From Blasia pusilla (lineage: Eukaryota), in assembly GCA_050084515.1 (NCBI GenBank), contig CM114271.1, positions 15,438,001 to 15,502,000 on the forward strand: a stretch of DNA of 64,000 bases. The letters are read 5' to 3'. Made by a program: the position numbers and the translations under genes. Under the pieces are notes generated by a model, which was not told the origin of the DNA, did not search any database, and worked only from the letters and a program-made list of their open reading frames with translations. Position 1 is the first letter of the stretch, and every line of letters begins with the position of its first letter. Below, in pieces: positions 1-42,166 of the stretch.

Positions 1-417
1 GCATCCATTCGGGGTGGAGATTATCGACCATCGATTCATAGGTTCCATGTGGGGGACTATGTCTATTTGTAGCAGATTGCACCGAAAACATTGGATGTGA
101 CGGCAGACCGCACTATTTTATGAATGCGCAAGGTGTTAGCTTATGGAGTTCTCATGTTAGAGGGTCGTGATGGAGTTTTTTGGAAGGACCATGTGCATAA
201 TTGTGCGCCATGCCATCTTCCAAATGTGGATGGTATTGTTGACCCAAGCTTAGCCATGATACGTGCTAGCTTGAGGTGCATGTTGTGTGGATCTGCAAGT
301 AACGCAACCCGTATGTTGGTGTGTGATCGGTATTCTAGGGGTTGGCACATGATGTGTTTGACTCCACGTATGGATGTTGTTCCTATTGGAAGGGGGGTTT
401 GTCCTCGATGTACTTAG
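1..417 (+). pseudogene. Integrase C-terminal region plus PHD finger (degenerate)
   Basis: CMLCGSASNATRMLVCDRYSRGWHMMCLTPRMDVVPIGRGVCPRC matches C4HC3 PHD spacing with one Cys changed to Tyr. In-frame stops occur upstream. Confidence 0.85.
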
Positions 418-591
418 GAGAGGTAGATGACTTGATCTTTGCATGATATGGATTACAGATAGGTGACTAACGATGGGGCAACCTAGCACCTGGCCTTCTG
501 ATTCGTGCACCCAAGAAGGTGTATAGCATGTAGTAGATGTATAGGGCTACTTGGGAGTTAGAGGGACCTAACCGCCAGTTATGGGGGCGAG

Positions 592-696
592 TTGTGATAC
601 ACTTGTGTTTGTGGATGCTCTCGTCTATGTTATGTATGTATGTGAGTATGGTATGTCAGCGATGTATGTTGTATGACGATGTGGATTCGCACGACA
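592..696 (+). repeat. B1 repeat of copy 1
   Basis: 105 bp with 3 mismatches to 1067-1171. Ends ...TTCGCACGACA and is followed by TT and then TGTCATGACC. Confidence 0.9.
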
Positions 697-1066
697 TTTG
701 TCATGACCATACGGATTATGTCGTAGAGTTTAGTGTGCTAGTAGAGGCCATACCTTATGTAGGCCGTAGTGTCTAGGTAGAGATGCAGTTTCATACATAG
801 GGTTGGGGGTTACTCAGTTGAGGGTGACTTTTCTAGTAGGGCCCGCTCTTAGGTTGGAGGATATAGTGTGGAGTGCACTCAAAGAACAGTTAGTTCTTTG
901 AGTTGAGCCTGTTGCGTTGGGAGTTAGCCTTGGTAGTGAGTAGAGCTCTTGGCTATGGTGGTTCCCGTAAGCTTCGACCTGGATTCTCCCATCGTGGAGT
1001 GGGTTTGGCTCGATTGTACATGATTCTATATGTGTTTTATGACAGTAAGCCTTTCACGGATTTCAA

Positions 1067-1171
1067 TTGTGGTACACTTGTGTTTGTGTATGCTCTCGTC
1101 TATGTTATGTATGTATGTGAGTATGGTATGTCAGCAATGTATGTTGTATGACGATGTGGATTCGCACGACA
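1067..1171 (+). repeat. B2 repeat (3' terminus) of copy 1
   Basis: Direct repeat of 592-696, ending ...GCACGACA. Sequence switches to AT-rich host DNA after it. Confidence 0.9.
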
Positions 1172-5770: not shown

Positions 5771-8700
5771 AGAATAGCTAAAATAGCAGGCCTTTCCCCT
5801 CACCACCTTAGAACGGCCGAGAAGAGATCTTCATCTATGCATGGCACAGACATTATGTTAGTCATACTATTAAGGGCATCAATTCTTTTAGAGAATGCCC
5901 GCATGTGAAAATCTTGATAGGCTATAATATCATAGTTTTTCATTTTACTAAGCTTATGAGATAAGCATAAAAAAACCAAAGTTTTTTTTTAAAAATTCTC
6001 GATTTTCTTCATATTTTCAATAAAAAATAATTAATTTTTCCCAATTTATCTTTTTTCTACTTTTTTCCAATCGTATAAAATTTCATATTATGGATTTTAT
6101 GAATTTGTTTCAGCAAGGACACCAACGAGGTAAGGGGGATTCTATAATTGGTATACTATAATTGGGGAAAAGAAACCCATTTGGGTCAAAGAAGAGAGGG
6201 GATATAAAATGGTGGGACAAAAGAAAAAATTGACACGATGACAAAAATAAGATTGATTTTCTTTTAAATGGGATGATGGGGGCTAGAAAAGAGACGGGAA
6301 ATCTCCTTCTTTACAAACAAAGAAGGGATTTTTTTATAAACACAGGAAAATGATCATTTCAAAGAAGGGGATTTCAAATCCTTTTTTATTATAAATATGA
6401 AGTAAAGTATTTGTATTGTCATTTACATTAGCTTTTTGCATGTCAAACTAGTGAATCGCGATAAGTGCTCAAAGGCTTCACTTCGCATTTCTTCAAATAT
6501 GGGGCATGTATGAAATATCCAACCAAAAAATAAGTTGAATATAATTTCCATCATCCAAAATAGTTAATTAAAAATATCCAATGGGAGAAAATATCATTAT
6601 CTGAGCTAAAATATCTTACAATTTATAACCAAACCTAACTTTTTCAATCTTTTGAATTTAGATTTTATGGTGATTTTGCAACCCTTGTCTCACTTCCATC
6701 TTTCTCATCCAATGCACCCCATAAGGATCAAATCGGTAGTATGGGTAATTCATACTTTGTTTTAATGTAAGAATCTATGTGACAAGAGAGGACTTAACAT
6801 AGGCTAAGTTATAGAAAATACTTAGAATATGAGGGTATTATTTAGAGAAAAATATAAAGTGATAATATTTGGATACATACAGGATATTGCTAATAATGTA
6901 AGAATAAGGTGAAGATCATTTTTAGTGTGGAATATGTGGTGCACACATGATAGTGCATAAGAGCATACACATGGCAAGCATTAAAAAACATAATGTATAT
7001 GACCAATGAAGAAGAGATGAAATAGACATGATCTTGTTGATCCATGACATGGGTGGAATGGATCACTCAAGAGAATATAGAAAGGGGAAAATTTCCTTGG
7101 GGAAACTCTTACCCTCTTGGACCAATGTCTTTCTTTTGGTACACTAGAGTATTACGATGGTACCAAATATAACAAGAGTGTGCACCATCCCTGCTTGAAG
7201 AGGAAACATTGGAAGCGAGAATATAACTTGTTGTAGGTGAAAACCTTTAATTGTACTTGAAGAACCAACGATAAAATTCTCCTTTTTAGTTGAATCGAAA
7301 TTGTTGAGTGGTAATTCCATCCTTTTGGGTAATTAAATATTTTTAAATGAGCTTAAATAAGTTATTTGGAAATTAGTGATATATTATATAGATGTATCAA
7401 TTATCATGTGCCACTCATATTCCTCATCATACTATTCCAAGCATGGCCTTATCAAGTATGGAAAAGCATCAATAACAGTGAGAGACTGTACTTCTTATTT
7501 GGGGTTCTTAAGGTTGATAACGGTCAAGCATGTTACATCCTTCAACTAGCCATTTAATAAGTGGTTTGATCCTAAGGAGTACAAATTGCTTGTTGGGAAG
7601 AGTAAAATATTTTCTCATCTCCATGGAGCAATCCACACACAAATATTATGCAAATCATTAAAAACCCCTTTATAAAGTTACATTCGGATACCTCAAACAA
7701 TGATAGGAGGAGACATGGTGACAACAAGAGAGATCAAAGATCCTTGTCGAAGTTGAGGAATTGGTATAACGTATTGAAAACGAAACAACTCCATACTACT
7801 TAAAATTAGCAACATCAATGTGCAAATATTTATTGTCATTATGAGGAGTTTTTCTATAAGAGATGAAGTATGGTTATCCATTGCCTACTTATATTTTATG
7901 AGTATCCATAAGATAAGGGCACATTTTATTCAAGATTTTTCTATTGTGGTTAAGTGAAATGGCATAACTCCTTCCACACAAAAAATCCATTATTTAATTA
8001 TTCTCTTAAATTTTACAAGTGTCAACATGGAAAGAGGGTGTTGACACTTGTCTCGACACCCCATACTCTTTTAATTGTATAGATATCATCTCTTGTAGTG
8101 TAAAATATGACTCAACCAATATTTTCAACTCTTTACACGTTACAAGCACAACTCACAAGTATTGTATAAGTTTTAGTACGTATACGTTGTCTATATGATG
8201 TAAATATTTTCATAGATATTAGTCATTATATTATGAATCAAGTTATAAAAAAAAAACTCCCCATGGACTACTATTAAAGTCACGATTAACTCAAGATTTA
8301 TCAATCAAGATTTATCAATCATTATCAATGAGGTCATGTATGAAATGACTTAATGGAGTTAAATCTTTTTAAAAAATATAATTTTATGTCCGATGTCCAA
8401 TAATTAACTTACCTCACTTGATAGAATACCTTCTCGTCTCAACGATCTCGATCACAAACTACAATATTTTTGGGGATACATTGGATTTTATTGCAATGGC
8501 CAAATCTTCTCGTGCCTTTGAACAAGTGTTCGGTTCAAATCCTCTTAGCTCTAGGATAATTAATATTTTGGTCAACACCTCTCGAGACTACTAACTTGTG
8601 CTTAATAGACCTTTTCTAATATAGTTATATATTTTTCTATTAGAAAAGGTCGTTGGAATCAACATTATTTTTAATAAAAACATATTAATCCTATATTAAT

Positions 8701-11081: not shown

Positions 11082-11086
<5 letters not shown>

Positions 11087-11176
<90 letters not shown>
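11087..11176. repeat. (CT)n(AT)n compound microsatellite
   Basis: Seen directly. Confidence 0.98.
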
Positions 11177-12059: not shown

Positions 12060-12960
12060 AGTCTACACTACCCTAATCTACACCCTCATATGATCTTGCA
12101 AGAGTGCATCATAACAATACAAGGCGTGGTGTGATAATATTCTATTATAGTCTATGCACACTCTTTCATAGCATATGTGACAAAAAATTCCTCTTAGGCA
12201 TCCCACAAAAGTGTAAGCTCCTTCCTAGTCCATATATCAATAACTTCCAAAAAAATTTCACCCATCCAACGTCCCATATACAAAACATCAATTAAAAATC
12301 CTCACAAGTGCGAGACTCTAACTATTACTAGCAATGTAAACACAATGATGATAACATCCCTGCTGATCATCATGTGGTAAGTTATCGTCGCTATAGTCCC
12401 TATAAAAACATATTGGATTCTTTATATTGATATGGTCCTCCTCCTTGATGGAATGGTGCAATCATAATTAGCACAATGCATGAACCATATCATTCCATGG
12501 CTATTGGTGTCGTAGTACACCATTAGATGATGCGGCGTGACACCCCCATCTCATAACAACTCAATATTTGGAATATTTTTGTGCCTATATGATTATTGAT
12601 GGAATGGTATGATCACAAGATGTACAACACAACAATTTGATGGTGCTTTGCAACTAAGGGAATCGTAAACCTTCCAAATGTGACTTGGGGAAAGTATCTA
12701 ATTGTCCCATGAGTCCATGAAAGGAAAATGTGACTTAAACATAGCAACAAAGATCAAGCGAATTCCTAGTAGTGCATAACATCCACCACCTCCAATGTGA
12801 CGAACTCTAAATCAAGTCAGCCTAGGCTCGCTTGAGTTGGACTTGTAAAAAATTAGGGAGGTGCAACGTAGTCATCACATGGATGCACATGTTGTACGCA
12901 TATACATCGCTACACAACATATATTGCAATCACCAAATATAATCACATTAACACAAGATA
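12060..12960 (-). mobile_element. Old relic of the same gypsy family (leader-like sequence plus a B-type terminus)
   Basis: 12060-12250 resembles the copy-2 leader at 22500-22690 (ATCTACAC...CGTGGTGTG...CATCCCACAA...CCATATATCA). 12890-12937 TGTTGTACGCATATACATCGCTACACAACATATATTG matches B1 at 15600. Confidence 0.5.
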
Positions 12961-14405
12961 CAATATTCACTCATGGAGTCTACACATCCATATGATCGTG
13001 GATCAAAATATTGTAGGATGCCTTTGATGAAATTGGAGAACAGACTCGGTAGCTCAAGGACAATATATCCAAGCTATTCTCTAATCTCGTCAAAGACACC
13101 CAACAAATACTTATTGATCCATCCTAAAAGGCGTATCACACAGAATTCATGGGGTTATGATAAATAAATAAATAAATAAAAGGATTTTAAATGATGAAAA
13201 TCATATGAAATCCCTCTTTGGGGCCTATAAACAGTAGTAAATTCCATGAAAAGAATCCATGAACTTGATTCTATGAGAACATCAACAATGACTATATGTA
13301 GCTTTGTTAAATACAAACTTAAGATCTATATAAAAATAAAAAAACAACCCTTAATTTTTTACCGACTCCTTGCAAGAGCCTATTTATGGAGATCATGGTC
13401 TCCACTGTACACCATTGTTGGAATTTCTACAAATTTTATGCTCATATCACTTGTAGCTATTGTCATAGAGTATAAGACCTCTATTATGTTTGAAATTTGG
13501 AGAGACTTCCTTGCATATTTGTTCCATACCAACTTTAAACTTGTTAAAGACAAAACACTAAAAAAACCTTAAAATTTGACACTCTTCTCGATAAGCCTTT
13601 TTGTGGACATCTTGGTCTCAACTCAATATTATTGTTGGAATTTCAGTATTGCTCTTATGCTCGTCAATTTCACACTGAAATCTCCCATAAAAATAGCAGA
13701 CCATAAACCTCAAGATATATCCTAAGCAACCTCATGAGCCAATAAGTGGGAAACATCGTCCTCAATCTACAAAATGAACAACAATGATAATGCCATAAAG
13801 CTACTATATTGTAGAATCGTTCATTCTCTTTGTGTAAGTTATAAACAAAACTCCAAAATCTATAGCTCTCTCTGATTTCACACCAAATTCACTATAGCAG
13901 TGAACGGATTGGGGTGCTTACGAGATAAGGAGGACCATAACTCCACCAACTAATAGAAGAATGTTCAAAACAAAGAAGATTAGCTCTCCTCACTGTCTTT
14001 CATTCTCTCTCTCTCTCTCTCTGCTAATTCTATGGTGCCCATGCTAGCGGGGATATAGGAAGAGAATCATGATCTTGGGTTCAAGGATGAAAGACCTTGT
14101 TGTGACCATCAAAGTCAAAAGCTAGTCTAGCTAGTCATGAGACTAGGAAAGGAATCAAAACTAACTACGGGACTAACACTATGCGGAGGGTGAACTTGTC
14201 TTGTGACTAGCCTTAGGTGAGAAAGGAGTGTAACTACTTATGAGGATAAAGACAAGAAAAAAAAAGGTTTGAGACCTTGGAGCCAACTGCCAAGTCAAGG
14301 GCAAGAAGCAAGGAACACATGAGTGGTCAAGATGGGTGAGACGCCACGAAACTAGTCATGAAACGCAAAGGGCAGCAAGATGACCATGAGAAGCCAAAGA
14401 GGGAG

Positions 14406-14637
14406 CAAGGTTGCATGTGGACAAAGTCTATGTCCTCCCTATGGAAGGGCTTGTCCATGTGGGCCCCACCATCCCCTTCTTTATCGTTCCCTCCACCCCC
14501 CCCCCTCCTCTTTCATTGCCCCACTTGGCCTTACCCTACTTCCAGCATGAACTATAAGTATGGGCTCCACCTCTTATCATCCATGTCGGTGGACATATCC
14601 ATACTTGTCCATCCATGTCCATTTTTGTGCAACCATA
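14406..14637. mobile_element. hAT MITE family copy (opposite orientation to 63670-63997)
   Basis: Ends CAAGGTTGCATGTGGAC ... TTTTGTGCAACCATA. Flanks AGAGGGAG / ACAAGAAG match only partially. Confidence 0.7.
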
Positions 14638-14970
14638 ACAAGAAGTCAAGATGGGCGCTAGCCATGAGAGATATGAGACGTGGGTCCAAGCTCCAATATG
14701 CATTTGAGAAGCCGAGAGTTGCATAAGCTGCAAGAAACCTCCACCAGGCCATCTCAATGAATAACTTGTCAAATTTTGGTCCATAGAGCATGACTCGCGT
14801 TTGGGTATGAGGACCAAAATATAGGGTCAGAGGGAGACAATGGGGGAGGTAGGTTTCTCCTAGAGAACTCGAGAAGTACCTTGGGGGGGGAGGGGGGAGG
14901 GGGGGCGCGGGAACACTCTCTTCGTGCTCAAGACCTTGAACCAAGAACTAATCATGATGCGTATTTGGTT

Positions 14971-15081
14971 TGTCGTGCGCATATACATCGCTGTCACCGA
15001 ACACACACACAAACACGCACAATCCCATGCTAACTCATAGCATCCAAACAACGAGACGAGAAGGACCAAAATATCTCAAAT
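14971..15081 (-). repeat. B2 repeat (3' terminus of copy 2)
   Basis: 111 bp; matches 15600-15727 apart from a 17-bp deletion (ACACAACATATATTGTT) and a few substitutions. Confidence 0.9.
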
Positions 15082-15597
15082 TAAAATAAAGATCCAATCT
15101 CTCTCACAACACCATAGTTCTCACATGTGTGGACTCTCACATGTCTCTCTCAATGTCAAACCAAACCCACTCTCCTAATGAGAGGCTTGGATTACACTCA
15201 CAAGGCAAGGGACCATAGCTCCGCTGCCTCGTGCCAAGAGGTTCAACAAAGAGAGAATGAGCTCTCAAGCTCTCTCTCCTTGAGATATACCTTTCTCCTC
15301 CCCCGAGCTCTCTCCATGGTAACCTATGCTCCCAAATCACCTCCTTGGCTCTTAACTTGATATAGGAGATCAAGGTCCACTTACCATAAATATTAATCGA
15401 CCATATACTCAAAGTGGTACTTACCGAAAATAGCATGTTCCTCAATGTGGCTCCAAATGAGCCGAAACAAAGGGAAAACCTGCTCTCTCAGGTTTCATGG
15501 GGCCTCAACATGTCATCCTTGACCTCTTGAGCATGTCCTCCACTACTGGAGAAAGCGCTCTAGTAGATCTTACCGATCTATCCTAAAAGACGTGACA
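15082..15597 (-). repeat. A2 repeat of copy 2
   Basis: 516-bp direct repeat of 23980-24494, about 85-90% identical by eye. Begins TGTCAC on the minus strand. Confidence 0.92.
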
Positions 15598-15599
15598 AT

Positions 15600-15727
15600 T
15601 GTCGTGCGCATACACATCGCTACACAACATATATTGTTGTCACCAAACACACATACAAACACGCACGATCCCATGCTAACTCATGGCATCCAAACAACGA
15701 GACAAGAAGTACCAAAATATCTCCAAT
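15600..15727 (-). repeat. B1 repeat of copy 2
   Basis: 128 bp, ends ...GCGCACGACA on the minus strand and is separated from A2 by a 2-nt AT spacer. Confidence 0.9.
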
Positions 15728-15906
15728 CGCCCCCTAGCTGGTCGTTAGGTCCCTCTAACTCCAGATAGCCATCTATCCCTACATACCATGACATACATCT
15801 CTCGGATGCTAAGAGCAAGAAGGTTGGGTGCTCATGTGGCCGCATTGTTAGTCGCCTTCTTGTCATCCATGTCACAGACACAAGTCAGAATGCAGAACTA
15901 CCTACA

Positions 15907-18900
15907 CTATGTATATGTAGGACACATCCATTGTCCCTAAGGAACCCTAGTAAGAGGTGGTGTCAAACATGTCATATGCCATCCTCTGGAACATCCATCA
16001 CAGACTAGCATAGTGGCTGCACCACGGGTGGAACCACACAACATACACCGCAAGCCGGCAGAAACTATTGCTAAGCTCGGATCCAATATACCGTCAATGT
16101 TTGGAAGATGACATAGCGCCCAGTTACGCACATGGTCCTTCTAAACCATACCATCGCCTCCCTCCAATAAGAGAACACCAGATGGCAAAATCTCAAGCAC
16201 TTTCAAGATGGTCACCCTGCAGTCACATCCAAGGTCGTGGATGCCGTCTGCTCCAAGTAGACATAGTCTCCATGATGAAACCTGCGGATAGTAGTTTGAT
16301 AACCACCTCCCCGAATAGTCGCATACCTCAATGTATCTCGATGTTGCGCAATCGCCAAGTTCTCAAACGCCATGGGGATCACTCTCCGAAACAACCCAAC
16401 CCTCTGAGAACATGCTCGCATCCATATATCAGGGTCATCAAGGTTCAACACCTCACTAACATCTCGACGAATGGCCGTAGGTAAATTTGGCTCTCGGCCA
16501 TACAAAAGCAAGTACGGTGAGAAAGACGCTAAGGATGTCAGCGTGCTGAATCTGTATCCCATCGCCAACCACGGGAAAAGGAGGTCCCAATCTCCTAGGT
16601 GACCTCTCTACAAGCCATACTTGCATAGTCCTCTCTTCACCGTTTGCACAACCCGCTCCGCTAGTCCATCCATCTTAGGATGATCTCGCGAAGTAGTGTA
16701 GTGGTCGATCAGTGCCTGATCACACAAGGCCTAAAACGCCCCGCGGAACTTTGTACCCTGGTTTTTCAACACCTCAGATGGCACACCGTAATGACCCAAC
16801 ACCCGATCTAGGAAGGCATACGCTATTCCCTCACTCGCTTTGTCATAAAATGTAACCAACTCTATCCACTCTAAGAAGTGCTCGACCATCACCAACACAA
16901 AGCAACTATGGCGCACCGTCAAAGGCAAAGGTCATGCAAAATCCAAACTCCATCTATAATCTAAATCCATGATCAAAAGTGGATGCAAGTGTGGAGTCAG
17001 AGCATTGAATGATGCTCGGACTTGATTACACACCATGCATCTGGCAACAAACTGCTGAACGTCGATTTGCATGCCTCGCCACCAATACTGAATCTAGAGC
17101 AAGCTGTATATCCGCTTCACTCCAAAATGACTCAACTCCTCGTGGGCATGATGCACCAAATGTGCTCTCTGCAAAGGACGAGGCACTACACGCACTCTAC
17201 CATCCTCCTACACTCCCCATTCTCCATCAGACCTCGCCATCAAAGTCTCAGCAATCTGGCTCTCCATAGCCAACAAGCCCAAATAGGCTAACGCATGCCA
17301 TCCTGGCACCAACTCCTCATCACTCTCACCATGCCAACGAGCTCCAGTCAACGAGCTCCAGTCGCATCTCGCTGACTCGAGAATGGGTTACGAATCATCC
17401 TGGTTGAGCATCCCAAGTCTATGCACCACCTGGAAGTCATACTCCTGCAACAAAAGAGCCCATCTCGCAAGCTTCCCTGTAAGCTTGTCGGACTCCATCA
17501 ACCACTTAAGTGGCTTATGATTAGTAATGATGGTAAAGGGATTGCCGAATAGATAACATCTGAAATGTACAACAGCCCACATTGCAGCCAAGCACTCACC
17601 CTCATACGAGCTATACTTTTCCTCTGCAACGTTGTTCGAGCGACTAGCGTAAGCCACCATGAACTCTCTACCATCATCGTCAGGATGGGTGAGCACGGCT
17701 CGAAGCCCCAACATGCTCCAATTGGTATGCAACTGGAAAGGACGCCCCGTGATCGGTCTCCTCAATATGGGCGCGGAAATCAATATATCCCTGAGCATCT
17801 GAAATGCTCTCTTCTACTCATCCCCCCAGTGCCACTCCTGATCCACCTTGGTCGGCAAGGTCAACGGCTTTGCAATCGAGCTGAAACCCTTGACGTACCG
17901 TCGATAGAAGTTTGCCAATCCCATGAATGCACGAATTTGACTCACATTTGTAAGACGTGGAATGTGTGAAATAGGCTCTACCTTCGTCTGCTGCACACCA
18001 AGGCCACCTGGATATATCTTACGACCCAAGTACTCAATCTAGTCGTAGAAGAACTTGCACTTGCCTGGATGTAGCTTCAGCCCATGTAACTGAAATCGTT
18101 GAAACACCTCCTCCAGATATCGTTCATGCTCCTCAACCGTGGCGCTAAAGACTATGATGCCATCAATGTTACACCTAGGACAATCCAGACCTGCCAAGAT
18201 CCTATCCATGACCCTCTGAAACTCAGCCGGAGCGTTCTTTAACCCAAATGGTAAGAATCGCCACTGGTACAAGCAATCCTTCCCGTGAGGATCGATGCCC
18301 CAAAATACCATCTTCTGCCTATCCTCCAATCTGATAGGAAGTTCATGGTATTTGACTCGAAGATCTAACGAAGTGAAGACCTTTGCATGCCCAATAGCAT
18401 CAAAGATCTCCTCAGGAGTAGGCATGGCATACCTATCGGACTTTGTCTACCGATTGATGGGTCGGTAATCTCCACACGTCCGCCTATTCTTCCAATTGCC
18501 ATGCACATCCCTCTTGGTGGGCATGACAATGGCAAATGCATACTCTCCATGCGACATCTCCTCTAGTCCCGCTCCAACCAAGTGCTGGCTCCTACTCTGA
18601 ATCAGAGCCCTCTCCATGTTACTATACCTGTAGGGTTATCGGAAGATTGGCATGTTGCTCGAAAACTCAATGCTAATCCCTGGACCCTTCAGCGTACCCA
18701 AATCATGCATACTAAATGCAAAACAACTCCTATAACTCCTAAGGAACTGGTGTATCCGGCGTCACTCTCCTCTTGTCAACTTAGGGCCCATACGTGGCCC
18801 CCAAGTCTCCATCATGACTACGGTAGGACTCTCCGGCATGGGTGTTGATGGTTGCTATGGTGCAACCCCGTCTCAAACAACAAAACTCAACTGCTCCCCT

Positions 18901-21900
18901 AGAGCCAACTGCAAATTTGGATCTCCATATGCAGTACCCTGAACTACGCTTGATGCTGTGGCTACCATCTCCTGGCGTACCTGCAAAACATCCTAGTATA
19001 TCACCCGACAAGAGGTTGTGGTGAGGATTCGATCGAGACATCCTACCGATGAGTCTGTGGTGCGAGCCAAGGCGATAGTGACTCATGCAGAGTCCTACGA
19101 CATCTTGGTTGGTGAAGCAGTGTTATATCCGATAGAGTTTTTTGTGGATTACTGGGAGGAGTCAGCGTCCTCCAGACCAGGAAGGTAGTCAGGTGATGGG
19201 CGCCTTAGCTCATTACCCGTTCAATTCACAGGTGTAGTGATCGAGCGACGGCCAGGAGAGATGGTGACCTTAGCAACATTTAGCAGTGCCATCACTTGGC
19301 CTAGCGATTTGATTGAGGGACATGTTCATGCAGAGGATACTCTAGTTTCTGACATTTCTATGGAGAGGAGTGTCATGGTAGTCGTTTTGGGGCTCGACTG
19401 AGGAGCTTCGATGCTTAGCCACTGAGCATGTGCAAACCGCATGGAGCGAGACGTTTGCACCAGAGTGTGATGGGTTAGTGGAACCATAGATAGCCAGGAG
19501 TGGTGCTATGACCCCTTTGGACATCACCCCCGATTATGTGGTGCATCCTAGAGAAGGGTATTCGGGTGTTGGATCTCTTTGGAGGGATCAACACTAGGTT
19601 AGCTGATGTTTTGTAGGCTGGAGTGCGCCTGTAGCAGTACCTGTATGTGGAGATTGATGATGTTGCGAGGCACGCTTTACTTCACCATGTGGCACAATTA
19701 CACCTCTATTTTCCAGACTTTTTATCTGCGTCCGCCATTTTTGGTGGATTCTATATTGAATTCGGGCCGTACATCACAGGTAGTGAGGCTAGATGATTAA
19801 TCGCCGTTGACTGTGGTCAACGGGATTGGCATGCCACGGGCAACATTTCCCACATTGGTGAGTTTTTCCGCTTCCTATGAATTCAAGGAGGCCGAACCTG
19901 GCTTGGTTTGGGATGACCAGGTACTAAGGTTGGTGGAGCCCAACGCCGATGAGCGAGAGTGAGCGATGGGATTCCCCATAGGAGTGGCGACATAACTGTC
20001 ACTATCAGAGGCATCACAACATCGTGTCTTGGGTTAGGCGATGGACCTGAACTCGACACACCAAGGATGATCATGATAGAAATCTTTGGACTTCTGTGTG
20101 GTACTTGCTCCATCCAAGGATGTATGTATCCGGAATGGACAACGCTCCACATTGGCTCTCGTTAAGACCAATCCTTTGAATGACGCTTTCCCCAACATCA
20201 GGGGTTACGCTCCTGAATCCAATAAGACACATTGCGGACTAAAAGCTCTACCTCATGGACTCACCACCTGGAAGACCTCTCCCCAATTATCTAGCAACAC
20301 AACACCAGGAGAAGCCATGGCACGCTTTATCGCAGGTCTGGCCGGCATCTCCGCCATCCTAGCAGCCGTAGACTGCCATGAATCTGGCTCGAGCATACGC
20401 TCCAATGGTAGGTCCATCGCCTCCTTTGCAATCACATGTGAACGTGATGCAAGAACTCCAACTCCACGCTCACATAGCATAGCAGCCAGCCGGAAAACCT
20501 CGACGGGCATACCTCCCAACGTCATAACATTGGAAGCAGTACGGAGCGGAGCACGGTACACCATCGTGGCCGCCCCCAATATCATACTCGATCCATGCTC
20601 CTCCTGAGCATCAGCAATAGGAGTCATCCCACTTGCTTCTCCCATCGCCCTTTGTGCTTGCATACTAATAACATCACCAACTCTCCGGAAACTCTGATCA
20701 TGACCCATTGATGGGGTCCTCATCGCCGTAGACAACGTGAAAGACAGAGGAAGCGTGGTCTGTTTCCTGGCTTCCCCTCATTGTGGATCCAACTCTGCGG
20801 CTGCTCCACGTGTTACAACTGCGGCGACCTCCATTTGGGCAACCCCGCACATCCAACCAGGATCCTCCATATCTCTGGTTGCTCCATATGATGTTGATGC
20901 CACGAATCCGGCATCGAGTAACCTCAATGCCATAGCGGCAATCTGCTCCTGTAGCTATTGTATCTGAGCAGCCATCCTAGCCTCACGCCCGGCATCTCCC
21001 TTGACGCGTCTAGGTGGTGGGACTCTACCTCCTCCACGGGAAATTCCACCATCCTGTCGGGGAACTCCAGCTCCTCGTCCCCCAACAGGACCACCTGGTG
21101 CACAATCTCTAGCCCACCCGGACCGACTACTCGCTCTGGTGCCATCTCTGGACCTCGTTCTGGACATAACTCAGGGTGTAAATTGAAATACCTGGCGCGT
21201 GTGTGACCATATCTTTGACAATAGTCACACTGATAACCTCCTAATGCAGCACCATCTCCTCCTCCACGCTGAGGCACACGTCCATGACCCTGATGAGTGC
21301 AATCATGTTGATGATGGGCTCCACCACATGACCAACAAGTAATCATAGGCGGTTGCTGCTGAGCCGCATATGAAGTCTATGTGGCACGACCTCCCGGTAT
21401 CCTCCCTCACCTCGTGGTGCCATAGTCAACCTATCTCGGAGTCCACGTTGTTGCACTCGTGGTGCAGACAATCGTGACTGCTCTCGCCCAGAACCCATGG
21501 TGGCTACACTCTCCTCCGCCATGTTGCACTCACTATTCTTGGCGGTCCTAAAAACATCTCTCAACGTAGGGGAGGTGTTCAAAAGAAGCACCCCCTCCCG
21601 CACCCGTGTCCGCAGGGTCTGGTCCAACATCGCGTACCATGATTGGATAGCCTGAGCCTCTAATCTTTGAGTGACGTTGATCAACCGGCGCAAGCGAGTG
21701 TCAACCTCACACAAACTCTCACCCAAGCGCCTCTGGAAGTCATGGATGCTCCGCAACTTCTTTGTCCGTACCCCCTAGTAGCTCGCCCTCAACTCATCGG
21801 AGAACTCAACCAAGGGGTTGAATATGGGACGAACCCGACTGGATAGTGCAACTACTCCAGTGCGAGTGACCCCTCCTAAAACATCACTAGTGAAAGAAGA

Positions 21901-22200
21901 AGTGGCCTCTCTTGACTCCTCCTCCTCATCTGGGAACGGCTCCATCCATGACAAATAGTGTGGGTCATAGTAGAGTCGCCATGCCTCAATCTCCTGGGCA
22001 TATATGTGGGAGAACTCATGATAATCGTCTATGGACGCCCCCTCTAAATGCTGGAACATATAGTTCCATGTTGTAAACGGGTTGAACTCTCTAGAGTTCC
22101 TAGCCTGTTGTGAGTCACACCAACTCCTAAACTCCACAATGAAGTCGTGAAGCTCTATAGTGCCTATAGCACCTGAAAACCTACACGGTCCTCTACCCTA
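15907..22200 (-). pseudogene. gag-pol polyprotein pseudogene of copy 2 (many stops and frameshifts, internal inversion 18997-20093)
   Basis: ORF-track fragments join into one collinear polyprotein ending ...RVP*GQWMCPTYT* (stop at 15909-15907). The start is not resolved. Confidence 0.9.
19557..20056 (+). pseudogene. Cytosine-5 DNA methyltransferase domain inside copy 2 (inverted segment, central motifs deleted)
   Basis: GIRVLDLFGGINTRLADVL*AGVRL*QYLYVEIDDVAR gives motifs I-II (DLFGG at 19572-19586). After a frame jump near 19740 it reads FPTLVSF...EPNADERE*AMGFP (motif IX, 19951-19977) and RVLG*AMDLN (motif X, about 20023-20052). Confidence 0.85.
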
Positions 22201-23979
22201 GTCGTCCATCTCGTATGCCCAACTGGTAGGACCACTCAATATGTATGGTGGATCACTAACACACTCCTCTATATGCTCCCCCTTGTCGAAAGAAAACATA
22301 GAAGGAGATCGAGGTGGTCTCTCATGTGGAGATCCTCAAAACCTCCCACCATTCCGAGTAAACCCTCCAGAGCTACTCTCAGGTCCACTACCTCGCCTCT
22401 CAAAATCCCTAAAGGACGTTGTGATGGCCCTTGTGCCCCTCTCACACGATCACTCTTAATCTTGCAAGTAATCCCTCAATCACTAAAACTAAACATGCGC
22501 ACTCAATCTACACTCTCTCACTAAGACGTGTAATGTGCGGCAACAAGCATCGTGGTGTGGCAAATCAACTGATCTATCGTCTCATCGACAAACCATCCTC
22601 AACTCTGGACATCCCACAAGGGTCTATGTCCCCTAAACCCATATATCATGGATGCTCTCAGCATCAACACGAAACCCAATATCCCAAATAACTTCCCAAT
22701 ACCCAAAAATCCCTCACACATGCAGGATAAGAGACCTGAATGGATAACCTGACAATAATCTCGATGTCGCTCTATGGCAACTGCAAATCTCGACCCCAAC
22801 TCGATCGTGAAGAAAACTCCTCCAATCAGCAAGTCGTACTTCGCTCGTACTGACGCTGCTCAAACCTCCTCGATGTGTGGTGCAGGTCGAGCGATCCGGT
22901 GGCATGGCACTCGGGATTGGGATGCGGCACTTGGCGGCATACCCTCCTCAATAAAAAATTCACACGCTCTTTTCCTTAGTGAAGGAGTGGCTCCACGATC
23001 GAGACGGTGCAGTGCGGCCATAAGCGGCACGGCCCGGCAATGGGCAATGCGTTGCGGCTACGGGCGTCATGGCACGGTACTCAATCGCTGTCGAGCAGCT
23101 ACCAATCACAACATAGTAGCATGTTATGAAAACTCATGCTACTATAGCCCGAGGTCACCTGACATCACATGTTGATGACAAAACTGCGATGATGGTGGCG
23201 GCCAAAACAAAGTATGTGGTGGCGGTGCAAGTCAAAGAATCAACGGTCGTCGTAGAAGACCCTCCACTCTATAATGGCAGAAATGGAAACCAAGGGTGGA
23301 CAACGGTCGAACGCGGCTCTGAGAAGCGCCATGCGGGGGTGGCAACCAACGATGGACGATGGACGGTGGACGGTGAACCGTTGACGGTGGCTATGACGGT
23401 GACTGCCACCGCCGACGCGGCGGCAGGTTTAGGGTTTGAACAATTTAACCCTAAAAATCGCCTATCAATGGAAAATTTTCAAGATTAACCATAACTTTTT
23501 GTTCGCAACTCCAAACTCCGCATTGTCTATTGCACAGCCTGCACAACTTCATGATCTACGACGACGTTAAAAATATTTTGAATCAAACATTCCAGTAAAA
23601 ATTGAGAGGGATTGTCGTAAAGCCAAATGTCTCTTTCTCCTACACAAAATTCGACAACACTTCCGCTCTGATTTCTCCCAACGAAAATATAAAACCTATA
23701 AGAACACAAATCAGCAAGCTACATGGTGCTCCCAAGAGCACTGGCATGGAGCAATCGACCCCCATACTCAATTCCTATCAAAAATTGGGCAGCGCTTCCG
23801 CGTGCCACTCTCCCGTAAAAAAAATCAGCAAAGCAAAACAACAGACCCCCACGTCTCTTGCTCCGATGAGCACTCCCATGAGCCATGAAGTGGGGAACAC
23901 GGTCCCCCAACTTGCACCAAACATCAAGAAACCAGCGAGCTTCCCCATGAAGCTCTCTCACTCACTCATTCTCTCTTTG

Positions 23980-24494
23980 TAAAATAAAGATCCAATCTCT
24001 CTCACAACACCATAGTTCTCACATGTGTGCACGCTCACATGTGTCTCTCAATGTCAAACCAAATCCACTCTCCTAATGAGAGGCTTGGGTTACACTCACA
24101 AGGCAAGGGACCATAGCTCCACCGCCTCGTGCCAAGAGGTTCAACAAGAGAGAATGAGCCCTCAAACTCTCTCTCCTTGAGGTATACGCCTCCCCTCCCC
24201 CAAGCTCTCTTCATGGTAACCTATGCTCCCAAGTCACCTCCTTGGCTCTTGATCTGATGTAGGAGGTCAAAGTCCACTTACTAAAAATATAAAGGCGACC
24301 ATATACTCAAAATAGTACTTACCTAAAATAGTAAGTTCCTCAATATGGCTCTAAATGAGCCGAAACGAAGGGGAAACTTGCTCTCTCGGATTCCCAGGGC
24401 CTGAACGGGTCATCCTCGATATCCTGATCATGTTCTCCACTACTCGAGAAGGCGCTCTACTAGATCTCACCAATCTATTCTAAAAGATGTGACA
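23980..24494 (-). repeat. A1 repeat (5' terminus of copy 2)
   Basis: 515-bp direct repeat of 15082-15597. Starts TGTCACAT on the minus strand and is not followed by a B copy. Confidence 0.92.
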
Positions 24495-24767
24495 GGTCGT
24501 ATTTCATGTTTGAGCTAACAACATGTACCTTAAGGAATTAATCAGCACGCTCTGATTTAGGCAAGCAACTTGGGAAGATTGATCAAGGCTTGAGGAAGAG
24601 GCTTCTTAGGGAGACGGTATGCACTTGGGGAGACTCAACCTAATTAGCACTTGCTGACTTCTATGCTATCTATTGAATGTGAAACCAATTGAGCCTTTGG
24701 AACTCAATCTAAGTCTTTGGCTTACAAAAATCAAGGTTGGGAGTGCTTCGAGGTAAAGTAGAGGATG

Positions 24768-24769
<2 letters not shown>

Positions 24770-24837
<68 letters not shown>
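24770..24837. repeat. (CT)n microsatellite
   Basis: Seen directly. Confidence 0.98.
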
Positions 24838-24838
<1 letters not shown>

Positions 24839-25199
24839 GGATATTAAGGATAAACTTACAAAATGGGAATTCAATCATGGCTAAAATATAAGGATTACCT
24901 ATAAAGGCAAGTTTCTCTAAGTAATCATAAATATTGCCTAAATTTGGGGTAATTTGCATGAGGAGGTTTCCCAAAGCCCTAATGGTAATAATTCACCTAT
25001 TGATGTTGGCGCCCTACCTTTAAGGATATGGTACGAAAATACTCTGTAGTATAATATAATTGATATTATAAAGTGAAAGGGAACAATTATAGTAAAAGCT
25101 TAAAAGATTAGGTGATAACTCGTTAATTAACATCACTAATTGTTTAGGGAAAAAAAATCATACCAAAATATAGTGATAGTGAGGACATTCAATATTCAA

Positions 25200-28100
25200 G
25201 TATTTTCCATGTATATATATATATATATCGCTACATAATCCATATCACTAATCATATCTATACAACACACAACACCGATCTTCCTAACAGACGGATTGAT
25301 CCAAACATACAAAAGAATGCACTCATGCAAGCACACCAAGACCACGCAACAAAAAAAAAAGAAAAAAAAACCCGTCCAACTCGCAATATCAGCATATACT
25401 CTTGCTCGGTGTGTTGTGAATTTAGTGGAGGAGACCAAGTAGTGATTAGAGCTTCCACGCTTAGAGAGAGAGTTTGTACTTCAGGTGGTCCATCCAATGC
25501 CTTGTGATGTTCTTTCAGATTTGAACTCTTCATCATACCATCTATTAAACCTGATTGGGATCCCCTCGGGGAATCCTAGAAGACATTACTTACTAGTACA
25601 GCATCTTTGGGCAATCAATCCAGGGTATTGAATACGTTGAAGAATTTTGGTGTGACCAGCTTGGCTATATCAGCATATGCTCTTGCTCTATGTGTTTTGA
25701 ATTTTGTGCATCAAACCAAGTAGTGACCAAGGCACAAGAGTATAGTTGAGTTCCATCCTGGTTTACTTATGGTTCAAGGGGATACAAGCCGTCCTAAGCA
25801 AGGGCTTTCCACAAAATGTTTCTTCAATTTTTCTTGTTGTGGATTTACCCTCAAGAGAGTGAGATCATACATTTTCATGCCTTACTCCATGTTTTTCTGT
25901 TGTGATCATTTTCCCACTACTTTGGTAATGGTATCCAAAAAATCCTTTCTCATCCACCGTTCGCCTTGAGGAATTTCAGACTCTAACATCTAAGCTCCTA
26001 CCAAAACCTAGCAAGAGTGGTGCTCCAAAGGCTCAATATGAGAGAGACGGCTTGAGAAAACCATCTTTCCCTCCCTTATATCCTTGGAAAGAGGCAAAAT
26101 TCTCATCCCCTAGAAATAGCCCTCTCAATAGTAACTTGCACATAGATGTTACCAGATGACTCTTGACTTGGTCCACACGTAGCCTCACCTAAAATAGTAA
26201 AAGAGGGGAATTTTTCTAAACAACATTCTCGTCATAACAGAGTTGTTATTATATGCTCAAATCATTTGCTAACCCTCTACATTTTTTATATGGCATAACT
26301 CTACATGTCGAGTAACTAAGATATGAAAAATAGCGTGCACATACATGTGTCTACATAACCCACATTGCTAGTCACATCTACGCAACCCTGATATTCCCTA
26401 CATATAGGTATGATACCTCAGAGAGCATGTAACACATGTGCCCAACATGATCTGCTATCTTATACACATCCAACAACATGAGAGCTATCATATATGCAAC
26501 ATCTTCAAACACATGCTCCCCCTCTAATCCATCTTATCTATTTCAACCTAGAGATACCAATATGTCAGTATGTTGGCTTGTAACACTACAACTAATTCTG
26601 ATGTTGATCCCTCGGAAGAAATCTAACACTCTCATGCCCTCCTCTAGACATTGCCACACAATAAGTGTGGTATCCAAAGATATTATGTCTCCATTCTATG
26701 AGCATGATCCTCACCTAACTCTATATGCTCTAGGAAAAAGGCGCGACTTAATGCGTGCCTCATGAACTCGTATGTATTCCTCTAAAAGTCAATGCTTGTC
26801 CACACAATGGTGAAGATGTCTCCGCATCATGTGAAGAGATACCCATTATGGCATGTCTCTCAATGGGATTATCTGCTATTGGGATGTCCTCTTCATGTAC
26901 GCTCCCCTCTAATAACGCTCTTGTCCTGCTAACTATATCCCTGAATGTTGCCAATATAGTCAGAACATCACCTTGTGGATCACTGCTACGCCCTACGAAT
27001 CGCATAAGTAAATGGCTTACTTGTCCATCACCTAATCGCCATCATGATCTTGGTTGATAAAAAATCATCTCTTCACAAAAAATAAGGATGAAACCAAAGG
27101 GGTTCAACATCGTACTCCTTGCCAACACATCATACAACTTTGCTTATGTTGTAATCGCAAGATTGCGCACCATCTGAAGCATGCTTTGGCTAGAATCTAA
27201 CAACTAGCTCTTGTTGAGTCATGTTTTTCAGGGATGATACGACCCTGAAAAACATCGTATCATCCCTGAAAAACATGTTACGATGTTTTTCAGGGATGAT
27301 ACGATGAAAAACATCGTATCATCCCCAATGTTGCCTTTCCATAACCCCAATGCCAAACATGCAGCCTTCCCTAACTTCAAGGTTGTGCTCTTGAAGTTAG
27401 GGAAGTAGGATGTGCATCGAATGATATACCATACATATGGGACTAACCAAGCATAACATCCCACTCCAATTGTCCAAAAATACCATACTTGGTATCACCA
27501 TGGTTTGCTCTTTCGTTGGTCTAGCTGGCGTATCTGCCAACTTGGATGTTGCAACCTTCCATGATTCAATGCAGCGAGTCCCAAGAACCTACCATGAGGA
27601 TAGTTCCACCACCTCCTAAGAAACTACCTCTGAATGAAAGTTAGAAACCTCTTTACACTCACACACTGTGGCGGCCAACTCGAACACCTCTGATGGTCCA
27701 ACTCCCATTTTATCAAGTTCATGGCAGAAAATAATGGAGCATGGCTCACCCAGGTGGCCATCTTCAATAATGTAATCGATACTAATTCCAACCGAGTATG
27801 AATAGGAGTTCCCTCTCCAACTCCTCATGACATCGACATACCCATACCACTTGTGGGCACAAAAAGTTGCCTAAGCACCACTGATGGTGTATGAAGTGCC
27901 TTTGATAACGTGGAAGACTATAGAATCCTAGCATATCGCCCATCGATCAATCTCCTCTTGTGGGTCTTTCTCAATTCCACCTCTCTATGGATCGATCACT
28001 TTTGAAGCACCCCGAGTCAGATCAACATCAACCTCTACCTTAGATGCATTGCACATTAATCTCAAGCCAGTTTACTCCTCCCACATATTCTGATACAATA

Positions 28101-32144: not shown

Positions 32145-32940
32145 TGTTGGTGTGTATGTCAGGGACAGGTGGTACTGGATTTGTTGGGAACTGGACTGGA
32201 CTGAACTGAACTGGACTGGACTTGCAGCGGCGGCAGATGATGCGGAGGCGACGAGGCGTAGAAACTAGTGTCTGATGTCCTATTGTTGCGGTGGACGAGA
32301 TCGTATTTTGGGAAGGGTCCTGGTTTTGGGGGGGACTTTCAATTCTCCTGTAGAAACCTCCAGAGCCGGTGATGAAGATATTCTCTCGTCGAATTCAATT
32401 CTCGTACTTCTCAGGATTTGTGGAGTTCATTTTGGACGCTAGGTATCCGTGCTTCAAGTCGGGGTCTACAGATAGAGCTGCCAAGGAGACGCACTGGAAG
32501 TGACCAATTCGGAGTTGGAAGCTGGAGATAGGTTTTGGGTAAACGCGATCAGCACTGACCAGCGTATGCGGTGCCATTCACTGTTTAGTAGTTGGGATTA
32601 TCGGTGCCTGATCCCACTGGTGGAAGTGTGTTACATGTCGAACCTGCCGGGCAGGTCGCATGAGCAGCTGTACAGCCGTCGTCAGTCCTCTAGGCTGGAT
32701 CGAATTATCGAGATCTAAAGAAGGCTTCATCAGCGGGTTTGCTCTCTCCCCCACTCTGTCTGTCTGTCTGTGTGGCTTGCAGGGGTGAGCACTACCTGCG
32801 AATCAATTGACTCTTTTAGTCTCTTCTTTGGATCAGGTGTGTGCTCACCAGGAGGTCTATTGTGTCCCGCGGGACCTTCACAAACAGGGCAGGAGCGTGT
32901 GCGGTCGCTGTAAACATTTCCAAGCGATGCGTGTTTATAT

Positions 32941-32941
<1 letters not shown>

Positions 32942-33007
<66 letters not shown>
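32942..33007. repeat. (AG)n microsatellite in the ethylene-receptor upstream/leader region
   Basis: Seen directly; a shorter (AG)n lies at about 32111-32139. Confidence 0.98.
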
Positions 33008-33009
<2 letters not shown>

Positions 33010-34735
33010 GCTACAGCGGTTCCGATGGTCCACATCACGGGGAGAAGTTCGGAGATTTCGACGAGGGTTAGTTTCCCAGCTGAGTCTCGAGACGAAGTGG
33101 TGTGATAGCTGTTGTCGCAATTGAGGCGGAATATAGTGGAGCGATCGATGGACAGGCTTTACGAAGGACTGGAAGGCGATTGGCGAAGTCAATTCGCTAG
33201 GAAGGGAACTGACGCTGTCCTAGAGTCGGATATGCGAGGACTCAAGATCAAAGCGCTCGCGCTTGCTCTCCGTCCTTGCAACTCTAATCTTAGAGTACAA
33301 AGCGTAGGGCTCTGGGCACGCGCTGGTTAGGTAGAAAGGATAGGACACAATATCTGCCGCACTTATTTTCGTCCCTACCTTGTATTTTTGGTCTGCACTG
33401 ACATCATGCCCCGTGGTTATCCAGCTTAAAAACGAGGGCTTTTAGGATTCTTCCATACGAGAAGGTGACGGGGAGGCATTTGAGCTGGGTTTGTTCGTTC
33501 GCAAAGTGGATAGTATCGTGTTTGTGTCTCAGACTTCAAACCATCTCTAACATCGGGAGCTGATCATGCCTGTGGGAACCTCATGGTATTAGCCCTCAGC
33601 AGTCATTCTGGTAGTGATGATCCCCGGATTGAGGGTGGCCTATGCCATCACCTAATCTACACTCCATCCAACCTTCGATCTGCCATAGATTGTGTCCTGT
33701 CAGCGTTCTTGAATTCTGTGTTGTTCCAGTTCAACCATTACCTCATCTCCTCGTCCCTCTCCATTCTCGGATTACTCTTACCCTTTGAATAGCCCAGCCA
33801 GTGAATTCGTATGGTGATGGGTTTCCTCCTGAAGTGGTAGTCGAGTAGTACGTAACTGTTGTACTGTTACTATCTTCTGTTAGGAAATGTTGAGAGGCAA
33901 GTACTAGGATTCTATCTCGTAAACGTGCAGCTGTACCTGTTGTTTCATCACGACTACTGCTTCTACTGGGTTGCAAGCTGACACGGTATAAAATGGTTGA
34001 AGGTTTTGGCTGGAGCATAAACTGGCGCCGAGTCCCGAATTTGGAGAATGTAGCATTTTTCGTTTCTCCAGTTTTTGTACGGGAGGTGAAATGGTGGAAG
34101 AAAGTCTGCACATCAACAATGGTTACTTTGCAAGACTTGGGGAGGCCATCATTGCCTTGAACAGATGGAAGTGTCAGAATGACTCTGAAGATCGCTGAAA
34201 GACAATGTAAGCCTTGCATATTTCAATTACTTGACGCACTTGATATTCAGCGAAAACATAACATTTGTTGTTCCGGGAACGAGATTTCTTGGTCGGATGT
34301 AGGCATCCTGTACTGGGGAGTTTTGTCTTTTTTTCTGGTGTGTCTTGGTCTGTAGTTTGCAAGGTCCAACGTTTCCTACCCCGTTGTGCCCAAGAGTATG
34401 AATGAATTTAGGGCTGTGAGTGGCAATCATCTGAGCCCAAGATGGGCATTTCATCACGAACCTGTCTTTTTGGATGTCTTTTGTGATGGGCCGGGTTTGC
34501 ATGGTGGTTGATATCTGTAACTTTTATGAGACAATTTGGATTAGATCTGAAAGTAAAATAATCTTCAGGGAACTATCAAGGGTAATAGAAGCTACTATTC
34601 AAGTCACGAGTCTTGGAAAGGAGAGGTTTGGGTTGTGGCTAAGCACTGCAATTGCTTTGTTCTTATACAGGTGACCCTTTCATCTGCGCGTATTTCAGAA
34701 GTTAAGGCCTTGCGCTCTTCAGAAGATTCGCCCCA

Positions 34736-37700: not shown

Positions 37701-37804
37701 TTGGGATGGATGGTGTTGTTCTGAAACCAATCTCCTTAGGGGACATGAGTTCAGAGCTTTGCAAGCTCCTGAGAAAAGCCCCTCACAATGGAACATCTAG
37801 GTAG
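34736..37804 (+). CDS. ETR: Ethylene receptor (ETR family hybrid histidine kinase), about 771 aa; exons 34736-35728, 35989-36762, 37256-37804
   Basis: Ethylene-binding domain [16 protein letters not shown]...[12 protein letters not shown] domain, H-box MNHEMRTP, N-box GNAVKF, G1 DTGLG, G2 GGTGLGL and receiver LLDLCMP. Two GT-AG introns; the exons sum to 2316 nt in frame. Confidence 0.95.

Positions 37805-42001: not shown

Positions 42002-42166
<165 letters not shown>

Follow-up and report, generated by a model that had tools for sequence, protein, structure and literature searches.

Split direct repeats in a Ty3/gypsy-type retrotransposon lineage with a DDE integrase, described from a locus of Blasia pusilla

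Day et al. reportedly described in 1988 the split-repeat layout of TOC1 of Chlamydomonas. TOC1 has been named a non-autonomous DIRS element (PMC9940879). PAT-like, Ngaro and VIPER elements carry split direct repeats in the order A1 - genes - B1 A2 B2 (PMC4157794 and PMC7192593, both accessible in part). Here we report on Element 1, a retrotransposon on the minus strand of a 64,000-nucleotide stretch of Blasia pusilla DNA (GenBank assembly GCA_050084515.1, contig CM114271.1, positions 15,438,001 to 15,502,000). This whole stretch is called the window below, and positions are given in its numbering. An earlier reading of the letters without database searches, hereafter the sequence-only reading, had called the layout of Element 1 the hallmark of PAT/Ngaro-type elements, in agreement with the accessible text of PMC4157794 and PMC7192593. 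As in PAT, Ngaro and VIPER, both ends of Element 1 are repeated back to back in its interior. In those elements a tyrosine recombinase gene is present and a DDE integrase gene is missing, whereas Element 1 has a DDE integrase, TG..CA ends and 4-base-pair (bp) target duplications, and such target duplications are, to our knowledge, lacking in tyrosine-recombinase elements. Judged from its domains, Element 1 is a decayed Ty3/gypsy-type element with a DDE integrase, and the split layout is the norm of its lineage.

On the minus strand, Element 1 runs in the order GACC flank, A1, coding region, CTAGGGGGCG, B1, AT, A2, B2 and AACC flank. A self-comparison covered window 13500-26000, and the boundaries were then read directly from the sequence:

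24495-24498, minus strand: 5' target-duplication half GACC; 3/4 bases equal AACC on the other side, and relatives have 4-bp duplications
23980-24494, minus strand: A1, the lone 5' repeat, beginning TGTCAC and 88% identical to A2; presumed to contain the promoter, the transcript start and R-U5
15600-15727, minus strand: B1, the start of U3 (the unique 3' region), ending ACGACA; from sequence reading and self-comparison
15591-15606, minus strand: palindromic B1/A2 junction, ..ACGACA AT TGTCAC.., the presumed integrase recognition site, with conserved CA + 2 nucleotides (nt) + TG
15082-15597, minus strand: A2, beginning TGTCAC; from sequence reading and self-comparison
14971-15081, minus strand: B2, the terminal B copy, ending ACGACA, which is the 3' end of Element 1; from sequence reading and self-comparison
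14967-14970, minus strand: 3' target-duplication half AACC; from sequence reading

Every boundary that the sequence-only reading had placed for A1, B1, A2 and B2 proved correct to the base. The rest of the layout it described was found as well: a 2-nt spacer between B1 and A2 (AT at 15599-15598), the abutment of A2 (ending at 15082) on B2 (starting at 15081), a 5' end with A only, and an internal duplicate of B before A2 (B1, 90% identical to the terminal B2). A1 (24494-23980) and A2 (15597-15082) were 88% identical over 517 aligned bases, with 96% identity in the final 168 nt of A1. B1 (15727-15629) and B2 (15081-14983) shared 90% identity across 99 bases (E 2e-34); the final 22 bases of the two matched again, and a small internal duplication lies inside B1. 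TG starts A at 24494 and 15597, and CA ends B at 15600 and 14971. The sequence 5' of A1 showed no relation to B. Within the window there was no additional copy of A, and other B-like sequence occurred only at 12890-12976 and in a second element, Element 2.

Element 2 is a diverged relative cut by the start of the window, and its 3' end is likewise built as polypurine tract (PPT), B, A and B:

1-417, plus strand: integrase C-terminus and PHD finger, cut by the window start; tblastn with the relative P0014, 53% over 137 amino acids (aa); Pfam PHD, E 4.4e-6
581-591, plus strand: PPT ATGGGGGCGAG; from sequence reading
592-696, plus strand: B1', 97% identical to 1067-1173
699-1066, plus strand: A2', beginning TGTCATG after the spacer TT; from sequence reading
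1067-1171, plus strand: B2', ending ACGACA at the element end; from sequence reading

Beyond B2' the flank is unrelated. The 40-nt stretch ending in ATGGGGGCGAG is conserved between Elements 2 and 1, and A' of Element 2 gave no blastn alignment with A of Element 1; since A' cannot be aligned to A, Element 2 represents a separate family of the same architecture.

A small, strongly diverged relative lies at 12890-14050 on the minus strand. Inspection by eye shows an A-like end, after which comes primer-site-like CACAAAGAGAATGA near 13835, and a short unit at 13140-12890 spans TGTGTGATACG to GTACAACA. Blastn found a B-like end (76% over 87 nt) plus two short matches and nothing more. This relative may be a non-autonomous or solo derivative, and it was dropped as a further example of the layout because blastn gave just these three short matches.

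For the survey of relatives, 18 full-length relatives bearing a PHD finger were aligned, and metagenome contigs were scanned with this alignment, which gave 80 loci with up to 10 kb per side. Thirteen loci with clear repeats supplied A and B units, which were then mapped on all 80 loci. The 3' patterns were:

Downstream of pol, B-A-B: 27 loci (23 distinct, with 5 near-identical pairs removed)
Downstream of pol, single B with 390 nt or more of unrelated sequence beyond it: 15 loci (14 distinct)
Downstream of pol, B-A, then other sequence: 2 loci (L016, L059)
Downstream of pol, B-A running off the contig: 2 loci (L060, L074)
Downstream of pol, A/B homolog not found: 34 loci

Short contigs, matches that were truncated and distant clades at 28-36% identity made up most of the 34 loci in the last class. 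B-A-B was thus seen in 27/46 loci with A or B homologs downstream of pol. Upstream of pol, a single A was present in every one of the 26 loci where A was found (24 distinct), and B before the 5' A, or an A-B-A arrangement at the 5' end, was seen in 0/26. The complete A .. B-A-B pattern was obtained for 15 loci (13 distinct) and A .. B for 5 loci. Two complete, identical long terminal repeats (LTRs) at the termini were absent from Element 1 and from the relatives in which A or B was mapped. The distant locus L031 has an ordinary pair of 171-bp repeats, and its detection shows that the mapping does find canonical LTRs. Within each locus the identities of A1/A2 and of B1/B2 were similar, as expected if both pairs arise in one cycle. 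As to whether the family norm is the split layout or two full A+B LTRs, the 27/46 B-A-B 3' ends and the 26/26 5' ends with a lone A thus bear out the split layout. In L056, a same-family A-B unit lies at 6060-6528 in reverse orientation, about 300 nt past a single-B 3' end; it may represent a solo A-B unit, or else belong to the end of a second, tail-to-tail insertion.

These counts also bear on the most ordinary account of the locus, in which Element 1 is a canonical element with A+B LTRs and this copy was rearranged secondarily by a tandem or nested solo LTR and the loss of the 5' B. The copy is indeed old and damaged, with many stops and a 1.1-kb inversion. However, the same layout recurs in Element 2, at the 3' end of 27 loci and at all 26 readable 5' ends; the boundary between A and B coincides exactly with the PPT-side and primer-side boundaries; and target duplications flank the start of A1 and the end of B2. 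We therefore give a secondary rearrangement practically no credence.

The coding region of Element 1 was characterized by translation, Pfam scans and comparison with P0014, a full-length relative of 1039 aa:

20924-21376, minus strand: Gag-like fragment with a CX2CX4HX4C zinc knuckle; from translation, by eye
17244-18851, minus strand: reverse transcriptase (RT) and RNase H, interrupted by stops; Pfam RVT_1 1e-18 and RT_RNaseH 3e-33; tblastn with P0014, 58% over 539 aa
16215-17204, minus strand: DDE integrase (HHCC finger and catalytic core), interrupted by stops; Integrase_H2C2 28.9 bits; 63% over 330 aa to P0014
15937-16140, minus strand: C-terminal PHD finger; Pfam PHD, E 1.3e-8
18995-20096: segment inverted relative to the family; from opposite-strand read joints and an RNA strand flip

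RT, RNase H and integrase follow one another on the minus strand as in Ty3/gypsy pol, in reading frames broken by many stops. The sequence-only reading had assigned an rve-type integrase, and this assignment holds: Integrase_H2C2 scored 28.9 bits, above the cut-off of 25.5, and over 330 aa the region shares 63% identity with the integrase of P0014, which bears rve. Scanned singly, the decayed pieces of the integrase core stayed below the Pfam thresholds, and homology to P0014 was used for the core instead. P0014 carries RVT_1, RNase H, Integrase_H2C2, rve (52.8 bits) and PHD, and its best solved relative is the Ty3 Gag-Pol (E 1e-105). Its C-terminus aligns to window 16359-15919, and elsewhere in the window it aligns only to 1-411. 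In the Gag-like fragment, Pfam gave nothing significant for zf-CCHC. Opposite-strand joints at 18994-18997/20094-20097 were carried by hundreds of DNA reads, and the RNA flips strand over bins 19103-20095. No protease frame was seen on the minus strand of Element 1, because the protease region probably sits in the inverted segment 18995-20096.

A search with the RNase H piece of Element 1 matched 154 proteins. The nearest named matches belong to liverworts (Calypogeia fissa, Riccia sorocarpa, Marchantia polymorpha). Among the 154, many carry rve and PHD, some carry a C-5 DNA methylase domain, and long open pol frames with intact rve are retained in relatives. The C-5 cytosine DNA methylase domain stands upstream of RT in P0016, P0019, P0043, P0080, P0084, P0111 and P0116; two of the methylase-bearing pol proteins are from Marchantia polymorpha. 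A sub-threshold C-5 methylase remnant was noted at 5627-6097 of L011.

The element meets host DNA at the TG that starts A and at the CA that ends B, and the inverted arms of these two ends are conserved (TGTCATG / CA[CT]GACA). At Element 1 the termini read TGTCAC..ACGACA, so the TG...CA ends named in the sequence-only reading are present on both sides; the flanks are GACC/AACC. Among 15 distinct loci judged by eye, the 4-bp target duplications matched at 4/4 positions in 8, at 3/4 in 5 and at 2/4 in 2. The same two integration ends stand back to back at the B1/A2 junction, separated by a 2-nt spacer in 23/23 distinct readable loci and in both window elements. The sequence of this spacer is variable (GC, AC, AT, GT, AA, TT). 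TG..CA ends with 4-bp target duplications are the signature of DDE integration.

That signature counts against another explanation, in which a tyrosine recombinase acting in cis or in trans integrates these elements as in PAT/Ngaro and the DDE integrase is a relic. The repeat layout itself speaks for it, being that of PAT/Ngaro (PMC4157794, accessible in part). However, no tyrosine recombinase domain was found in the 13 scanned pieces of Element 1, nor in 14 reading frames of at least 100 aa in the 5' parts of L022 and L011, and the relatives keep long open pol frames with rve intact. Integration by a tyrosine recombinase is, in our judgment, barely credible.

Priming signals define a second frame of repeats in Element 1:

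15728-15737, minus strand: PPT CTAGGGGGCG, abutting B1; the preceding 40 nt are conserved with Element 2
23965-23979, minus strand: primer-binding site (PBS) directly after A1; complementary to A, and co-varying in relatives
15247-15261, minus strand: site in A2 complementary to the PBS, the presumed first bases of the transcript; from complementarity, with a TATA-like GTATATC about 29 nt upstream

The tract adjoins B1 and not A2 in both window elements, and in relatives a G-run stands immediately before B1. The 15 nt of the PBS are perfectly complementary to positions 337-351 of A2, and 13 nt are complementary in A1; as a control, 21/2000 random 20-mers reached a complement of at least 12 nt. 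Of 21 related loci, 14 had the longest stretch complementary to the sequence behind A1 (8-15 nt) at one conserved place in A, which lies 126-132 nt before the end of A in one family and 170-177 nt before it in a second. The primer-site sequence varies among families, and the matching site in A co-varies with it. A TATAAA box lies 31-36 nt upstream of the complement in 10/11 loci whose complement is 9 nt or longer. As far as complementarity can tell, this arrangement fits self-priming of the Tf1 type, and the predicted transcript start falls within A, some 30 nt downstream of the TATA box.

Since the PPT stands before B and the PBS after A, the repeat used in reverse transcription, as read from these sites, is B+A: U3 is made up of B and the initial portion of A; the remainder of A forms R-U5 (the terminal repeat of the RNA and the unique 5' region). 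PPT and PBS each abut a repeat unit, yet the unit B+A that they define differs from the unit defined by the integration ends. At the A2/B2 joint (15082/15081), the base before the PBS is fused to the base after the PPT, and by these positions the joint is a U5/U3 circle junction. It is exact in most related loci. Small changes lie exactly at it in L010 (+6), L017 (-2, with AT microhomology), L030 (+1), L033 (-3) and L035, and such small indels are what end-joining would leave. Going by the order of these boundaries, A-genes-B-A-B is a circular permutation of the canonical (BA)-genes-(BA) complementary DNA (cDNA), opened at the PBS-side B/A palindrome. This anatomy suggests that integrase cuts a site inside the repeat and not the cDNA ends.

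Whole-genome sequencing (WGS) and RNA runs under the same species label were placed on window 14800-24700 at 80% likeness. At this likeness or above, 176,011/12,434,590 sampled WGS reads (1.4%) fell on Element 1, and most were less than 90% alike, which indicates a large and old family. Past the B end at 15600, 1,368 reads ran into heterogeneous sequence (agreement 0.33), so the B end is a genomic terminus in many copies. At least 333 DNA reads joined the end of A to the start of B (joints 15727 to 15089, 15153, 23982 and 23987). RNA reads were nearly all sense, and at least 122 of them (X17) passed from the PPT into an Element-2-type B. Among the joints listed (15 of 424), RNA reads joining the end of A to the start of B numbered 3 (X16) and 1 (X17), against about 14 and about 23 expected when the DNA count is scaled by depth in the B1 bin. 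Because this joint is rare in RNA reads, it is probably remade in each cycle.

The rarity of the joint in RNA also speaks against the notion that it is inherited through RNA. Here, read-through from A2 to B2 and copy-choice between B1 and B2 would yield tandem (BA)(BA) ends, from which integrase would pick an inner and an outer palindrome. B2 does lie downstream of A2, so read-through is possible, and RNA reads cover B. However, among the joints listed it was carried by 3 and 1 RNA reads, below the expected numbers, and by at least 333 DNA reads, and RNA inheritance predicts A-B-A 5' ends and double units, which were unseen in the 26 5' ends. This route seems to us very unlikely.

We also considered whether reverse transcription by itself could make the permuted form, through a second PBS in B, priming by the B2 tail, or rolling synthesis on an open-circle intermediate. 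These were rejected, as none puts B to the right of A without U5-U3 joining. The minus strand starts at the end of A, so a B beyond A needs a U5-to-U3 joint. No primer-site-like sequence was seen in B, in the window or in relatives. The sequence-only reading had proposed a non-canonical route of both reverse transcription and end regeneration. Its second half is supported, since integrase ends lie inside the reverse-transcription repeat and a U5/U3 joint is needed. Its first half is not needed: the PPT and the Tf1-like self-primer look canonical.

We consider it rather probable that Element 1 belongs to a streptophyte-plant Ty3/gypsy lineage (RT, RNase H, DDE integrase, PHD), that A-PBS-genes-PPT-B-A-B is the form in which this lineage is normally integrated, and that its cDNA ends are joined and its PBS-side palindrome is opened by integrase. 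Self-primed reverse transcription would give a linear (BA)-genes-(BA) cDNA. The outer ends of this cDNA would be joined, either beforehand in a circle with two LTRs (2-LTR circle) or by host end-joining or repair after insertion. Integrase would cut both strands at the PBS-side palindrome and insert both resulting ends with a 4-bp stagger. The product, A-genes-B-A-B, would be the sole form again able to yield RNA with R at both ends, and the lineage would persist in this form because no other product again gives such RNA. Copies with a single B could come from recombination between B1 and B2, or from the use of both palindromes of the linear cDNA.

Several points weigh against this proposal. 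The main weakness is the strict polarity of the copies, which it does not explain; nor does it explain the order of its steps. A symmetric 2-LTR circle should also give A-B-A-genes-B, and this mirror form was found at 0/26 5' ends. Polarity would need an extra assumption, such as a much earlier conversion of the PBS-side repeat to double-stranded DNA, so that integrase would meet it first. We infer the joining and cutting steps from anatomy alone. At the 15/46 3' ends with a single B, direct integration and later deletion are indistinguishable. The copies examined are all old, with repeat identities of 79-95%, and activity was shown for none of them. The complement of the PBS in the window element is CT-rich, low-complexity sequence, and for the start and poly(A) site of the transcript the reads gave just small piles of read ends. 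The reads, with 15 of 424 joints listed, also leave room for a minority of canonical copies, whose marks would be joints of the PPT to the start of A and of the end of B to the PBS.

Strict polarity would be accounted for if the order of the steps were reversed, with integrase cutting the PBS-side palindrome of the linear cDNA once the repeat there is double-stranded and inserting the cut ends, and the host later joining the U5 end to the U3 start within the chromosome, so that no free circle is involved. The absence of mirror forms among the 26 5' ends and the small indels at the A2/B2 joint in five loci would both follow, and the anatomy of the junctions is the same as under joining before cutting. 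However, reversed order requires the concerted insertion of ends that sit on two DNA pieces, together with repair of a chromosome break at every event, and the A2/B2 joints are mostly exact. We regard the reversed order as unlikely.

Elsewhere in the window, three successive long frames at 34706-37804 on the plus strand carry ETR1_N + GAF, HisKA + HATPase_c and a receiver domain; by these domains they form an ethylene-receptor-type histidine kinase gene with introns. Other direct repeats, at 62517-62641/63537-63661 (90%) and 11732-11816/63711-63795 (82%), are unrelated to Element 1 and may represent a different repeat family. At 11082-11170, 24765-24845, 32936-33007 and 42001-42165 there are long (CT)n/(GA)n microsatellites, one of them some 270 nt beyond the 5' end of Element 1.

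In the full-text literature, "split direct repeats" led only to tyrosine-recombinase elements or general reviews. A DDE-integrase element with the split layout was undescribed in the full-text literature searched, and a record in a repeat library is possible (Repbase, Dfam, supplements and subscription journals lay outside the search). Element 1 shares with Ty3/gypsy and with Tf1/sushi-Tcn1 elements the order RT-RNase H-integrase, the PPT, and a primer site complementary to the start of its own transcript, the last being predicted here. Self-priming has been predicted for Tcn1 elements of mosses and club-mosses (PMC6317226, accessible in part). In canonical Ty3/gypsy elements, integrase acts on the outer ends of two identical terminal LTRs, whereas the integrase ends of Element 1 are internal to the repeat and its copy in the genome is a permuted one. 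Chromoviruses carry a chromodomain at the C-terminus of integrase; in Element 1 and its relatives a PHD finger stands there. An LTR Gypsy element with Dnmt3 (KnitGypsy-Dnmt3) is described in Klebsormidium nitens, and the accessible part of that paper leaves split repeats unmentioned (PMC5890265). Its likeness to the present lineage is the C-5 DNA methylase domain in pol of the relatives P0016 and P0084, and a K. nitens retrotransposon protein (P0085) is among the matches to the RNase H piece of Element 1. KnitGypsy-Dnmt3 differs in that no methylase was found in the window element.

Textbooks associate plain LTRs with DDE integrases, and split or inverted repeats with tyrosine recombinases. 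The present lineage uncouples repeat architecture from the integrating enzyme. DIRS, PAT and Ngaro have been viewed as composites of an LTR element and a Crypton, with split repeats arising more than once (PMC4157794, in its accessible part). We propose tentatively, with somewhat less than even confidence, that a DDE lineage common in bryophytes and algal relatives depends in every cycle on the joining of cDNA ends and on integrase opening an internal palindrome; that the split layout of DIRS/PAT/Ngaro follows from permuted integration and not from the recombinase; and that such a lineage is the state in which a swap of integrase for recombinase could start. The lineage in this way bears on the origin of DIRS/PAT/Ngaro elements. 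It also touches on annotation. Programs that search for LTRs look for a pair of equal terminal repeats, adjoined by the PPT and the target duplication. They would probably mis-bound or discard elements of this kind, though 1.4% of sampled reads fall on Element 1 at 80% likeness or more. Dating of insertions from A1/A2 would still be possible; the element boundaries would be wrong.

If the proposal is true, a substrate of the circle-junction type would be obligatory. Such a substrate was once proposed for retroviruses and later abandoned. The lineage offers a natural system for asking whether an internal palindrome together with joined cDNA ends can be the normal substrate of an integrase. The circle junctions of IS3/IS911 and IS30 are a preferred substrate of their DDE enzymes, with ends that abut across a 2-3 bp spacer. 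These are bacterial DNA transposons without reverse transcription, and the likeness of their junctions to the B/A junction is a mechanistic analogy only. The integrases of foamy virus and of HIV-1 cleave the palindromic 2-LTR junction (PMC1180852 and PMC1905944, accessible in part). As far as those accounts go, the likeness lies in a palindrome of two back-to-back integrase ends that is cut into two processed ends. In retroviruses, however, this palindrome is the U5/U3 joint, has a 4-nt spacer and serves a side path at most, whereas here it belongs permanently to the repeat and its spacer is 2 nt long. Unlike in retroviruses, the U5/U3 joint is here a separate, non-palindromic site, which ends up inside the integrated element.

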